A DNA stretch of 64,000 nt, taken from positions 3,805,487 through 3,869,486 of the forward strand of contig OZ271918.1 of assembly GCA_965602015.1 (NCBI GenBank), read 5' to 3'. The notes under the pieces were generated by a model that worked only from the letters and a program-made list of their open reading frames with translations, was not told where the DNA came from and made no database searches. This DNA comes from Salinispira sp. (GTDB taxonomy: Bacteria; Spirochaetota; Spirochaetia; DSM-27196; Salinispiraceae). Positions within the stretch are counted from its first letter, which is position 1. Each line of letters opens with the position of its first letter. Of the stretch, positions 2,077-18,105 are shown piece by piece. The position numbers were made by a program, and so were the translations under genes.

Positions 2077-2244
2077 GACGCCTCCCGAACAACATGAATT
2101 CTGTAATCTCGGAAACAATACTATCCCGACGGCCAATGCCCGTCCAGCGGGACCTTTTATTTTATCGGAACAAAAACGAGAATGGAATTGTCAGGCGAGC
2201 AGAAAGCGAAAAACTGACCTATGCAATTGAATTTACTTCTTCGC

Positions 2245-2253
2245 TGCTATAAA
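2245..2253 (+). promoter_or_regulatory. Extended -10 promoter element (TGnTATAAA)
   Basis: TGCTATAAA, identical in copy 2 at 15933-15941. Confidence 0.55.
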
Positions 2254-2258
2254 GTGCC

Positions 2259-2281
2259 TATTGTTCAATAATTGAACAATA
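2259..2281. promoter_or_regulatory. Perfect palindromic operator candidate, copy 1
   Basis: TATTGTTCAAT-A-ATTGAACAATA directly after the -10 element. Confidence 0.75.
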
Positions 2282-2571
2282 GACCCCTCCGGGTAGTGTG
2301 TTTCGGCCGCATTCGGGTTGTAAATCGTAGTATTTTATGAATGTCGACTTCGAGAAGAGACGCGTCTTCGCGTTTTCTCGCCTGGAAGGAGTCGGAATCT
2401 CTTGTATCCGTATCCGAAAACGTCAGCATGGCCCTCATTGGTTAAAGAACATGTCCAGGCCAATTGTGTCGAAGTCTTTTGCTGAGTAACAGTATTAAGA
2501 GATTATAGAAAACCTGTAGTTAGCTAATCCGGCCATTCAGTAACCAGGAATTTAGTAATAAAGGATTCATT

Positions 2572-3657
2572 ATGAAAAAAGCACTCATCACGGGAGTCAC
2601 CGGCCAGGATGGTTCATACCTTGCCGAGTTACTGCTGTCCAAGGGCTATGAGGTCCATGGCATAAAACGCAGGGCTTCAAATTTTAATACCGATCGCATC
2701 GACCACCTGTACCTTGATCAGCACGAGACTGACGTGCACTTTTTTCTTCACTATGGAGATCTAACCGATTCAACAAATCTCATCCGTATAATACAACAGG
2801 TCCAGCCCGATGAAATCTACAACCTGGGCGCCCAGTCTCATGTGCAGGTGAGCTTCGAAGTCCCCGAATACACGGCCCAGTCTGATGCCGTCGGCACTCT
2901 GCGGCTGCTGGAAGCCATCCGCATCCTCGGTATGGAGAAGAAGGTGCGTTTCTATCAGGCATCAACCTCCGAACTCTACGGAAAGGTGCAGGAAGTGCCC
3001 CAGAAAGAGACTACGCCCTTCTATCCCCGGAGCCCCTATGGGGTTGCCAAGCTCTACGGATTCTGGATCGTGAAGAACTACCGCGAGTCCTACGGAATGT
3101 ATGCCTGTAACGGCATACTGTTTAACCACGAAAGCCCCCGCAGGGGTGAGACCTTTGTTACCCGTAAGATCACCCGGGCCGCAGCCCGCATTTCCCTGGG
3201 GCTACAGAAGAAGCTGTATCTGGGCAATATGAACGCCTTGAGGGACTGGGGGTTCGCCGGTGATTACGTGGAAGGCATGTGGCTGATGCTCCAACAGGAT
3301 GGGCCTGAAGATTATGTCCTTGCTACCGGCGAAATGACCAGCGTGAGGGATTTTACTGCTATGGCCTTTGCCCGCGCAGGGATCGAACTGGAGTTCAGCG
3401 GCCAGGGCGTGGATGAAAAGGGCCGAAACAAGGCAAACGGGGACGTCCTGGTCGAGGTCGATCCTCGCTATTTCCGACCGGCCGAAGTAGAGCAGCTTTT
3501 AGGAGATCCGACCAAGGCGAGGAATGAACTCGGTTGGGAACCCCGGGTAAAGTTGTCCGGGCTCGTGGAGATGATGGTGGATGCTGACATCGAAGCAGCC
3601 CGGAAAGACGTGCATCTGCAGGATGGCGGATTCGAAGTGAAGGAATACAATGAATAA
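2572..3657 (+). CDS. gmd: GDP-mannose 4,6-dehydratase
   Basis: [59 protein letters not shown]. Confidence 0.97.
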
Positions 3658-15908: not shown

Positions 15909-16085
15909 ATGCAATTGAATTTACTTTTACGCTGCTATAAAGTGCCTATTGTTCAATAATTGAACAATAAACCCCTCCGAGTAGTGTGTTTCGGCCGCAT
16001 TCGGGTGATAAATCGTAGTATTTTATGAATGTCGACTTCGAATTGCAGGTGCGTCGCCGTACTGAGTTATGTAGAAGGAGTCGGA
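15909..16085 (+). repeat. Conserved leader, copy 2 (upstream of regulator/wzx operon)
   Basis: Near-identical to 2221-2396. Confidence 0.95.
15947..15969. promoter_or_regulatory. Perfect palindromic operator candidate, copy 2
   Basis: TATTGTTCAATAATTGAACAATA, identical to copy 1. Confidence 0.75.
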
Positions 16086-16139
16086 CCTCCGTGTGTTTAT
16101 CGCCCGTTGTCACCGCTTTCGATCAGCAAACTAGGGAAC

Positions 16140-16715
16140 ATGTCAGAATCAATCGTTTCAAATCCCGACACTGAATACCAGGCCCTCAAGGTCATTGAAG
16201 ACCTGCACGCAACCGGTTCCTCGGTGAAGCAAGCGCCTTCGCAGCGTGATTTCGCCAGGGCCCTCGATATGAGCGTGGGTATGACGAACACCATAATAAA
16301 GCGCCTGGTCAGCAAAGGCTGGCTCGTTATTAACCGAATCAACGGCCGCAACCTTTCATACGCTCTCACACCCGAAGGAACCCGGGAGGTTGCCCGGCGC
16401 AGCTATCGTTACCTCCGGCGCACCATCGGCAATGTGGTGCGCTGGAAGGAAGCCGTTGATCAGGTGGTCCTGGCGGCAAAGGAAGACGGATGCACACGGG
16501 TTCTGCTCATCGGCGACAGCGACCTTGATTTTATTGTTGAACATGCCACCCAACGCCACGGGCTTGTATTTGTACGGAGCGCAGGATTGTCGGTGACCGC
16601 GGGCGAAGGGTTTCGGAGCGGCACACTCGTCATCTTTAGCGAGCAGCAAGAATCGGATGCAGAAGCTTGCGGGATGTATAAAAGCATCCTTCATTTAAGA
16701 GATGTTATAGCGTGA
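16140..16715 (+). CDS. Winged-helix (MarR-like, EPS-associated) transcriptional regulator
   Basis: SQRDFARALDMSVGMTNTIIKRLVSKGW...YALTPEG; small C-terminal alpha/beta domain; ATG at 16140 after AGGGA. Confidence 0.88.
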   Translation: MSESIVSNPDTEYQALKVIEDLHATGSSVKQAPSQRDFARALDMSVGMTNTIIKRLVSKGWLVINRINGRNLSYALTPEGTREVARRSYRYLRRTIGNVVRWKEAVDQVVLAAKEDGCTRVLLIGDSDLDFIVEHATQRHGLVFVRSAGLSVTAGEGFRSGTLVIFSEQQESDAEACGMYKSILHLRDVIA

Positions 16716-16794: not shown

Positions 16795-18105
16795 ATGAAG
16801 AATATTCTGTCTAATTCTGTTTGGATGATTTTAGAAAAAATTGTTCAGATGATTTTTGGTGTTTTTGTCGGGATATGGGTCGCCCGCTATCTCGGGCCTG
16901 GAGACTTTGGCGTATTCAGTTACAGCATCGCCTTTGTTGGCTTTTTTCTTCCGTTCACTAGCCTGGGGCTTAATCATATTTTGACCAGGGATTTAGTGCT
17001 TGAAAGACAGAATGAGTTCGAAATTCTGGGAACAGCCTGGACGCTCAGGGCGGTGTCGGGATTTTTGGCAATTGCCTTGTCCTTATTGGTAGTCTATTTT
17101 CTTCGTGGAAATGAACGATCCGTAGTGCTGTTCGTGGGACTGTTATCCCTGGGACAGGCCTTCAAGGCTTTCCTTGTAATCGACTTTTGGTACCAGTCGA
17201 ATGTCCGCTCCAAATTTGTTGTCATCTCTCGGGTGATAGGGCTGGCAATATCAAATGCACTGAAAATCCTCGTGATTGTTACCGGTCAAAACCTTGAATT
17301 ATTCGTGGTTGTCATGTTCGTGGAATACAGTCTGCCACAGTTTCTATTGGCGATAACCTATCGTGCCCAAGGTCAAAAACTCAGAAACTGGGTTTTTAAT
17401 ACCTCGCGAGCAGTCAGCTATTTACGGCAGGGATGGCCTCTAATTCTTTCAGGATTCGCAGCTCAGCTCTATTTGCGGATTGACGTCGTGATGATCGGAG
17501 AAGTACTCACCGATACTGACGTAGGATTGTACTCCGCTGCGGCACGACTTTCCGAAATATGGTATGTGATTCCCGCTTCGGTGGTCTCGTCGATGTTTCC
17601 AAAAATTCTGCGGCTCCGGAAAGAGTCGAAGAATAGTTATGGGCGGAGGCTTCAGCAGATATATTCCCTCCTTGCATTTTCCGGTTATTCGATTGCCCTG
17701 GTGGTTTCCGTGACTGCACCCTTTCTCATCCAACTATTGTTTGGAGAGGATTATTCGAGATCTGTTCCAGTACTGCTGGTTCACATCTGGGCCGGCGTCT
17801 TTATTTTCATGCGAATACTTTTTAGCAAATGGATTATTTCCGAGGGGAAATTCTACCTTTCCATACTCACCCAGGGGGGCGGAGCGCTCCTTAATATCGT
17901 TCTGAACATCCTGCTTATTCCCAGGCTTGGCATCATCGGCGCGGCTTGGGCGACGCTGATCTCCTATGCGGGGGCGTCCTATGGCATTTTGTTTTTCAAT
18001 CGGGACACATGGGTAACTGCCCGAATGATGACCAGGGCGCTGTTTTTTCCCCTCACTATGTGGAATGACTTTAATTTGCGGAGGAACAATGAGTCGAATT
18101 CCTAA
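16795..18105 (+). CDS. wzx: Polysaccharide flippase
   Basis: ARYLGPGDFG, RIDVVMI, VGLYSAA, LNILLIPRLGIIGAAWATLISY; multi-TM. Confidence 0.92.
   Translation: MKNILSNSVWMILEKIVQMIFGVFVGIWVARYLGPGDFGVFSYSIAFVGFFLPFTSLGLNHILTRDLVLERQNEFEILGTAWTLRAVSGFLAIALSLLVVYFLRGNERSVVLFVGLLSLGQAFKAFLVIDFWYQSNVRSKFVVISRVIGLAISNALKILVIVTGQNLELFVVVMFVEYSLPQFLLAITYRAQGQKLRNWVFNTSRAVSYLRQGWPLILSGFAAQLYLRIDVVMIGEVLTDTDVGLYSAAARLSEIWYVIPASVVSSMFPKILRLRKESKNSYGRRLQQIYSLLAFSGYSIALVVSVTAPFLIQLLFGEDYSRSVPVLLVHIWAGVFIFMRILFSKWIISEGKFYLSILTQGGGALLNIVLNILLIPRLGIIGAAWATLISYAGASYGILFFNRDTWVTARMMTRALFFPLTMWNDFNLRRNNESNS

Follow-up and report, generated by a model that had tools for sequence, protein, structure and literature searches.

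Why should one and the same leader stand at the head of two separate polysaccharide operons in a spirochaete? In the window, that is the whole stretch of 64,000 nucleotides of Salinispira DNA analyzed here, one copy (copy A) precedes gmd and another (copy B) precedes an operon beginning with a winged-helix regulator gene and wzx. A first-pass annotation made from the letters alone had drawn attention to this pair, and its observation holds: copy A (2221-2353) and copy B (15909-16041) align without gaps up to about 2353/16041 and share 95% identity over 133 nt (E 2.6e-56) in a BLAST search of the whole 3.87-Mb single-contig genome. No third copy was found in this genome, either by BLAST, whose remaining matches are a palindrome of the leader against itself on the opposite strand, or with the covariance models R1 and R2, which match just these two places. 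The element is a compound module made of a promoter, a palindrome with a predicted operator role and an RNA hairpin, and it marks polysaccharide loci across Spirochaetota. Judged by sequence comparison, the hairpin (hairpin 1) is a conserved, covarying, cis-located structured RNA heading these operons.

In copy A, hairpin 1 comprises a 6-bp lower stem, an unpaired A (A2295) and a 5-bp upper stem (2296-2298 and 2300-2301 with 2306-2310) that carries a bulged U (U2299) and is capped by a UUCG loop (2302-2305); both copies are located in Table 1. Where copy A has G2292, copy B has A15980, and an A-U pair takes the place of G.U. The stem, the loop and this pairing-neutral difference had all been described in the first-pass annotation and are present in the letters. 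Folding of the single sequences gave z-scores against shuffles of -3.5 and -2.1 for the two copies. To this can be added a comparison with homologs collected from metagenome contigs by an exact pattern (the two palindrome arms, a gap of 10-30 nt, AG, three free bases, GTTTCGGC, one free base and G), which occurs in at least 118 stretches, the whole collection being estimated to hold about 140. Two matches, L095 and L109, lie in coding DNA without a promoter and were dropped as chance matches. Collapse of sequences more than 92% alike left 87 leaders, including both window copies and seven genome loci.

Over these 87 leaders, 85.2% of the cells in the lower and upper stems hold standard pairs compared to 63.6% after shuffling, and none of 500 shuffles reached the observed level. 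The covariation score of 0.567 drops to 0.181 for shuffled alignments and does not exceed 0.167 after sliding of the 3' partners by one to three columns. Four pairs adjoin the apex (columns 33-36 with 53-56); all were free in the search pattern, and each displays five or six pair types, with all six represented in the lower stem: pair 36-53 is GC in 38 leaders, CG in 29, UA in 10, UG in three, AU in one and unpaired in six, and the free upper-stem pair 40-50 is GC in 48, CG in 22, AU in five, UG in two and unpaired in 10. Since many of the 87 leaders are related, the significance against shuffles is overstated; the number of pair types and the slid control nonetheless argue for real RNA pairing despite this kinship. 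With its free positions covarying across non-redundant leaders, hairpin 1 is, on this comparison, far beyond chance.

The same figures bear on a reading in which the leader acts at the DNA level only, as a duplicated promoter and operator whose 'hairpin' is either a second protein-binding DNA site or without role. Promoter and palindrome are real and conserved, and the 9-nt string GAACATGTC, found in copy A at 2447-2455 and in copy B at 16136-16144, where it forms the ribosome-binding and start region of the regulator gene, suggests a simple duplication of the region upstream of the regulator. However, tolerance of every pair type together with G.U would not be expected where a dimeric protein binds DNA, and the free covariation seen over four successive positions of the stem therefore points to RNA. 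Furthermore, the length of the stem varies among lineages and the apex stays fixed. We consider a purely DNA-level element very unlikely.

A second route to homologs did not depend on the motif. The 191-aa regulator protein, searched against one genome per species, led to five loci, one in a Salinispira genome and four in metagenome-assembled genomes of another genus (36-41% identical). Upstream of the gene, each of these loci has a -35/-10 pair, the dyad TGTTCA..TGAACA and the apex GYRYGUUUCGGCYGY, and an upper-stem G-C pair is replaced by A-U between Salinispira and the second genus. A second complete Salinispira genome holds a diverged copy located before an unassigned open reading frame (ORF), itself followed by the regulator. 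In the protein-anchored loci the apex is kept, with UCCG in place of UUCG in L218, L220 and L221 and a G-C closing pair in place of U.G in L204 and L211. On account of these variants, the loop is classed by sequence as a UNCG tetraloop closed by a covarying pair. The string AG..GU-UNCG-GC.GC is kept across families. In most lineages the hairpin is extended by an outer helix of variable length, the complementarity of the flanks exceeding that of shuffles in 77 of the 87 leaders (mean z -1.45); the Salinispira copies represent a short form in which the outer helix is at chance level (z -0.5 and -0.3).

The strict pattern matched six of the 99 reference genomes of the order and six of the 401 of a phylum sample, and proved too strict; the reversed control pattern had no match in the same genomes. 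Model R1, run with the stricter filters of Infernal, recovered the motif in at least 15 of the 99 genomes, 11 of the 26 genera and nine of the 11 families of the order, and four more motif-bearing genomes were encountered elsewhere in the class. In Rfam 15, which includes a JUMPstart family, no family reached its gathering threshold either in the window or in 20 related loci, and at E values up to 10 chance-level matches alone appeared. The motif is an undescribed RNA family, absent from Rfam.

These results also settle the fate of a resemblance to the ops element. The first-pass annotation had pointed to a string G(G/A)GTAGTGTG within hairpin 1, from which one could propose an ops/JUMPstart-type element that an RfaH-like factor would recognize on the non-template strand of the DNA. 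The string does exist: copy A reads CGGGTAGTGTG, and its 3' part, TAGYGTG, resembles the end of the Escherichia coli ops, whose hairpin core is given as GCGGTAGC (PMC11685472). The likeness to ops and RfaH did not survive, since the positions of its 5' half belong to the stem that covaries freely in the 87 leaders, and differ in G001, G002 and genus g18, and since the genome lacks RfaH, its sole NusG paralog scoring 27 bits on the RfaH model TIGR01955 (cut-off 144.5). As it fails every defining feature tested (no RfaH, no conserved 12-nt ops word, no Rfam match), this reading was rejected and keeps next to no probability.

What had been taken as the first 60 nt of the leader is a predicted promoter of the sigma-70 type followed by a palindrome at the predicted start site, both missed by the first-pass annotation. 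An alternative -10, TGcTATAAA, occurs in copy A at 2245-2253, and a stricter promoter scan called no promoter at copy A. Among the 85 related leaders with enough upstream sequence, the -35/17/-10 layout is found again, the best pair averaging nine of 12 consensus matches, and an extended TG is present in 54. The core dyad GTTCA-N5-TGAAC is kept in the loci collected via the regulator protein alone, and many genera conserve it jointly with the hairpin. The end of the -10 hexamer falls exactly at the G of GTTCA in 57 of the 85 leaders; in six the hexamer overlaps GTTCA by 2 nt, and in 11, both window copies included, it ends 7 nt upstream. Because the -10 abuts or closely precedes GTTCA, the predicted start of transcription falls inside the dyad spacer for most lineages and at the left edge of the dyad in Salinispira, and because transcription would begin within it, the dyad is predicted to serve as a DNA site at the start point rather than as a required RNA hairpin. 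Agreeing with a DNA site are the symmetric variant GTTCG..CGAAC in L206, L207 and L218 and a copy in genome G420 (L236) whose dyad lies upstream of the -35, thus outside the transcript. RNA evidence could be drawn from nine small-share metatranscriptome runs of a digester relative, where a contig of 4259 nt (depth 22.6) begins at L111:1507, in the dyad spacer and two bases past GTTCA, a weak hint at such a start; two low-depth contigs end at L111:1518-1520.

Most simply, the palindrome would serve as operator for the winged-helix regulator whose gene follows copy B; it overlaps the regulator's own promoter, lying right after the predicted -10. From the position and symmetry of the dyad and from its linkage to the gene, we infer that the regulator binds it. 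The regulator, whose start codon was chosen by homology with G001, scores 41.7 bits on the NCBIfam model TIGR04176 (MarR_EPS; cut-off 88). An AlphaFold model computed with 26 homologs (pLDDT 86.3) predicts an N-terminal winged helix, a long helix and a C-terminal alpha/beta domain. In Foldseek the winged helix matches MarR-family regulators such as MepR and HcaR with probability 1.0, and the modeled fold is a MarR-type winged helix; for the C-terminal domain, neither Foldseek nor a profile search of PDB sequences (best E 0.076) returned a clear solved relative. No specificity covariation is visible between the recognition helix SLGMTNAILKRL and the half-site GTTCA, both being nearly invariant. 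This regulator family was previously unnamed.

The linkage extends well beyond Salinispira. Of 134 motif loci, 73 have the regulator gene within 1.5 kb of the motif, and with a profile built from 26 regulators the family was found in 51 of the 99 genomes of the order. Conversely, among the 30 best regulator loci, the motif lies upstream on the same strand in 24 (R1 with filters off), to which L204 and L214 were added by eye; of the other four, L199, L203 and L219 have a different gene directly upstream and L209 has a masked stretch. Where the next gene is not the regulator, 28 downstream ORFs were scanned. Half of them (14) are nucleotide-sugar dehydratases or epimerases, UDP-glucose dehydrogenases, sugar-nucleotidyl transferases or flippases; the rest are two methyltransferases, one oxidoreductase, four toxin-antitoxin-like proteins, one KAP NTPase, one iron alcohol dehydrogenase and five ORFs without family. 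The module nearly always heads either the MarR-like winged-helix regulator gene or polysaccharide-synthesis genes. In L056, L061, L096 and L180 the motif is followed first by a toxin-antitoxin-like ORF (Zeta toxin, Xre/MbcA antitoxin, HepT or Pol-beta nucleotidyltransferase).

In the window, gmd begins 175 nt downstream of copy A and the regulator gene 55 nt downstream of copy B, followed by the Wzx-type flippase; the gene rows after both copies run on the + strand for more than 13 kb each. Because copy A retains the GAACATGTC remnant, the gmd leader most likely arose by duplication of the region upstream of the regulator, and the promoter, the dyad, the hairpin and the strands of a second stem discussed below are most likely all that it retained. 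Genome G347 likewise possesses two copies, identical and 21 kb apart, of which one precedes the regulator and the other a further polysaccharide operon. The window itself is the final 64 kb of its single contig (3805487-3869486 of 3869486), and its first half is mostly one strand-uniform polysaccharide region.

Past the hairpin, conservation fades quickly. A segment aligned with G001 and G002 is conserved within the genus Salinispira alone, and beyond 2353 the two copies diverge over about 36 nt, share GAAGGAGTCGGA and diverge again. The first-pass annotation had described in this region a second stem, 'stem 2', and had extended to it the notion of a cis-acting structured RNA. Its pairing exists in both copies, and the interior folds into a hairpin in each; strands conserved on either side of a diverged interior hint at selection. 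However, these sequences are absent from the other two Salinispira genomes (L005, L007), and the minimum-energy folds of four Salinispira leaders disagree. With a comparison limited to two paralogous copies of one genome, stem 2 is unsupported as a conserved element, and the support for a structured RNA concerns hairpin 1. The 3' strand of stem 2 carries a Shine-Dalgarno-like AAGGAG (2385-2392; 16074-16081). At 10 nt past AAGGAG, a TTG in copy A or a GTG in copy B opens a short ORF, the two peptides being unrelated. Treponema-like leaders (L113, L130, L158, L117, L145, L142, L087 and others) display a second conserved hairpin, UCCGG-N6-10-CCGGAAGG, at 40-70 nt past the apex and followed by a U-run and the start codon; its 3' strand carries the ribosome-binding site, which it may mask, and stem 2 may be its analog.

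Such downstream hairpins invite an attenuation mechanism, in which the outer helix, perhaps held at its apex by a protein, would block a short downstream terminator, and opening of the helix would stop transcription in the leader. Terminator-like hairpins lie within 110 nt past the apex in 28 of the 87 leaders, compared to 6.45 in shuffled sequences, and in six Treponema-like leaders (L057, L074, L078, L117, L132, L168) the 5' arm of the terminator-like hairpin is the 3' strand of the outer helix, whose complementarity, as seen above, exceeds that of shuffles in most leaders. Copy A has such a hairpin inside stem 2, near threshold, formed by CGCGTCTTCGCG (2361-2372) and followed by TTTTCTC (to 2379). 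On the other hand, many of the 28 are the ribosome-binding-site hairpin UCCGG..CCGGAAGG and not terminators, the candidate terminator stems amount to 4-5 bp only, the Salinispira copies have no outer helix beyond chance and copy B has no U-rich terminator. An attenuator is in our opinion unlikely.

Table 1. Location of the features of the duplicated leader, its first downstream genes and loaP (positions in the window unless a contig is named)
Feature	Position	Strand	Description
Copy A predicted promoter	2227..2255	+	-35 TTGAAT 2227-2232, 17-nt spacer, -10 TAAAGT 2250-2255; sequence read
Copy A perfect 25-bp palindrome, predicted operator	2258..2282	.	CTATTGTTCAAT-A-ATTGAACAATAG; core GTTCA 2263-2267, TGAAC 2273-2277
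Copy A conserved RNA hairpin (hairpin 1)	2289..2316	+	lower stem CCGGGT 2289-2294/ATTCGG 2311-2316; covariation; R1 39.6 bits, R2 30.1 bits
Segment conserved within genus Salinispira alone	2317..2344	+	AATCGTAG..TGAATG; copies A and B aligned with G001 and G002
Copy A 'stem 2'	2345..2394	+	CGACTTC 2345-2351 with GGAGTCG 2388-2394; seen in this genome alone
gmd (GDP-mannose 4,6-dehydratase), first gene after copy A	2572..3657	+	Pfam PF16363 (GDP_Man_Dehyd), 527.6 bits
Copy B predicted promoter	15915..15943	+	-35 TTGAAT 15915-15920, -10 TAAAGT 15938-15943
Copy B palindrome, 23 bp	15947..15969	.	outermost pair lost: A15970 in place of the G of copy A
Copy B conserved RNA hairpin (hairpin 1)	15977..16004	+	UUCG loop 15990-15993; R1 42.5 bits, R2 32 bits
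Copy B 'stem 2'	16033..16083	+	16033-16039 with 16077-16083, different interior hairpin
Winged-helix (MarR-like) regulator, C-terminal alpha/beta domain	16140..16715	+	sub-threshold Pfam MarR/HTH_24; predicted palindrome binder
Wzx-type polysaccharide flippase, second gene after copy B	16795..18105	+	Pfam Polysacc_synt_3 and Polysacc_synt
loaP, 183 aa	G000:C1:2223051-2223602		NF033641 131.4 bits, cut-off 125

If hairpin 1 acts in the nascent RNA, a protein partner has to be considered. A UNCG-tetraloop hairpin located in the leaders of the dfn and mln operons is bound by the NusG paralog LoaP, and is needed for antitermination in vivo as well as in vitro, LoaP acting by antagonizing NusA at terminators, as laid out in the work on this system (PMC12691694). 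The same source places loaP in Bacillota, Actinomycetota and Spirochaetota, adjoining metabolite or polysaccharide operons. The genome studied here has two NusG-family genes, at 389726 and 2223060, both outside the window, where the first-pass annotation had rightly seen no NusG paralog. When the genome was searched for paralogs of the RfaH, LoaP and UpxY types, one LoaP was found, which scores 46.3 bits on the UpxY model (cut-off 100) and has PDB entry 8f5g as its best solved relative. Its gene heads a block of six (G000:C1:2223051-2229855) and is followed by genes for a CapD-like dehydratase and a DegT aminotransferase and by a xanthine-dehydrogenase-like trio (MoCoBD, 2Fe-2S and FAD-binding). 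G420, a genome of a different family, has these six genes in the same order (L192:2532-9267).

All nine genomes of the order that carry the motif and reach a completeness of at least 90% have LoaP, and it is over the cut-off in all four motif-bearing genomes outside the order. Its gene stands beside its target operon typically but not obligatorily; it is unlinked in the genome studied here, and two other genomes bring it close to the motif. In G003, the promoter comes immediately after loaP, and behind it stand, in this order, the motif (its loop being UCCG) and the genes for the regulator, a dehydratase and DegT. Between the loaP stop and the motif promoter (L221:1300-1330) lies GCGGCTTTTGAACGCTCAAAAC, a possible terminator or small dyad. 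In G420, loaP is 6.3 kb upstream of the motif on the same strand, and its block ends about 60 nt before the motif. G420 holds two further copies of the hairpin, one preceding a small ORF and an ATPase gene (L236:1380-1560), the other, without dyad, beside a tyrosine-recombinase-like C-terminus on the other strand as seen by eye (L239:1440-1540).

The reading to which we tentatively give most weight, at somewhat less than an even chance, joins both parts of the module: the UUCG stem-loop would recruit LoaP, and the palindrome would be the operator of the adjacent winged-helix regulator. Transcription would begin at or inside the dyad, where a dimer of the regulator, acting as a repressor, would bind and place its own operon and the gmd operon under joint control. 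Once transcribed, the UNCG hairpin would be bound by LoaP, which would travel with RNA polymerase and suppress termination through both operons.

A whole series of observations weighs against this proposal. LoaP exceeds the cut-off in 82 of the 99 genomes of the order, compared to 15 for the motif and 51 for the regulator; because LoaP is near-universal there, its co-occurrence with either is uninformative, and most LoaPs of the order must have other or diverged targets. In 35 other loaP loci R1 found no motif within 1.5 kb of the gene, nor does a LoaP lie within 1.5 kb in any of the 134 motif loci, and in the genome studied here loaP is 1.6 Mb from the leaders. Three genomes with motif or regulator, G092, G093 and G054, gave no LoaP match, being 71%, 63% and 75% complete. 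Terminator-like sites inside the two operons are not enriched (23 against 21.1 expected), and copy A alone has a terminator-like leader hairpin, with none in copy B. Contigs from three other metatranscriptome runs cross the promoter region at L111. Finally, loop and dyad arms were given by the search pattern, and how well they are conserved is judged on the smaller protein-anchored set, and the dfn hairpin is likened to hairpin 1 by description, not by sequence. The apparent lack of LoaP in G094 and G097 corresponds to breaks at contig ends. Upstream of loaP itself, a UNCG hairpin of at least four pairs occurs within 350 nt in two of 31 loci, neither resembling the motif, and a scan of the loaP loci for GT-TNCG-GC gave nothing consistent. 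The link between LoaP and the hairpin is circumstantial, and we consider it about evenly balanced.

Several of these observations would fit a conserved cis-regulatory RNA with a partner other than LoaP, either another RNA-binding protein, conceivably the regulator, or none at all if the hairpin is a 5' stabilizer or processing signal. The hairpin begins about 10-25 nt from the predicted 5' end, where protective stem-loops sit, and its distribution tracks the regulator in both directions (73 of 134 motif loci; 24-26 of 30 regulator loci) and does not track loaP, near-universal where the motif is patchy. Yet a plain stabilizer needs no invariant loop, bulge and flanking A of the kind kept across families, MarR-type winged-helix proteins are, by their fold matches, DNA binders, and no other candidate RNA-binding gene is consistently linked among the downstream ORFs scanned. 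This alternative appears doubtful, though it deserves to be kept in mind. In a coupled version, the hairpin is not a LoaP site and the same winged-helix/alpha-beta family reads both the dyad in the DNA at the start site and, a few bases later, the stem-loop of the nascent RNA; we hold it to be improbable, slightly more so than the attenuator. If true, it would constitute a new class of cis-regulatory RNA, an initiation-elongation switch for polysaccharide loci across Spirochaetota without known counterpart.

Whichever partner applies, the motif marks the starts of polysaccharide operons and can be used as such in genome annotation. A search of the literature on LoaP in spirochaetes brought up no paper naming a LoaP target there; the motif provides a sequence-defined candidate target in Spirochaetota, where LoaP is reported to be widespread, and its approximately 90 non-redundant natural variants form a ready-made mutational series. 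If LoaP does bind, RNA-guided recruitment of a NusG paralog would extend from the antibiotic clusters of Firmicutes to the surface polysaccharides of spirochaetes, and its reach would include treponemes of termite guts, rumen and digesters. If LoaP is not the partner, what is left is an undescribed covarying RNA family tied to an unnamed regulator family.

How does this module compare with known systems? Similarly to the RfaH/ops/JUMPstart system of Proteobacteria, it places a short leader element before long polysaccharide operons, and TAGYGTG is a partly similar string; here, in contrast, there is neither RfaH nor an Rfam match, and conservation follows RNA pairing instead of a fixed 12-nt DNA word. 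The EAR RNA of the eps and capsule operons of Bacillales is also a cis-acting RNA tied to polysaccharide operons. EAR is a large multi-helix RNA inside its operon and is tied to read-through, whereas the element described here, for which a role in read-through is predicted, is a single stem-loop at the 5' end without an Rfam match. With the MarR-family regulators of exopolysaccharide genes (TIGR04176) and autoregulated MarR operators in general, the module shares a winged-helix regulator at the head of a polysaccharide locus and a palindrome over its own promoter. It differs in the sub-threshold score on that model, in the extra C-terminal alpha/beta domain and in a predicted operator that is always coupled to a conserved RNA hairpin. 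The UpxY/opsX system of Bacteroides capsule operons (PMC11685472) has in common a NusG paralog dedicated to polysaccharides and a multipartite leader signal. There each operon opens with the gene for UpxY, which recognizes a DNA stretch of about 40 bp; here the paralog has no linkage to the operons and lies far below the UpxY cut-off, and the conserved signal is an RNA hairpin.

The closest parallel is found in the LoaP leaders of dfn and mln in Bacillus velezensis (PMC12691694). In both cases long biosynthetic operons carry a small UNCG-tetraloop hairpin in their 5' leader, a NusG paralog of the LoaP class is encoded in the genome and the same hairpin heads two separate operons; copy A likewise has a terminator-like hairpin downstream. 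The hosts and cargo differ, polyketide genes there and polysaccharide genes in Spirochaetota here. In the present case, moreover, loaP is remote and the hairpin is fused to a promoter-proximal palindrome and a dedicated winged-helix regulator. Joint action of LoaP and the regulator, if this is how the module works, is a new form of an already known type of control, and the RNA motif itself is undescribed.

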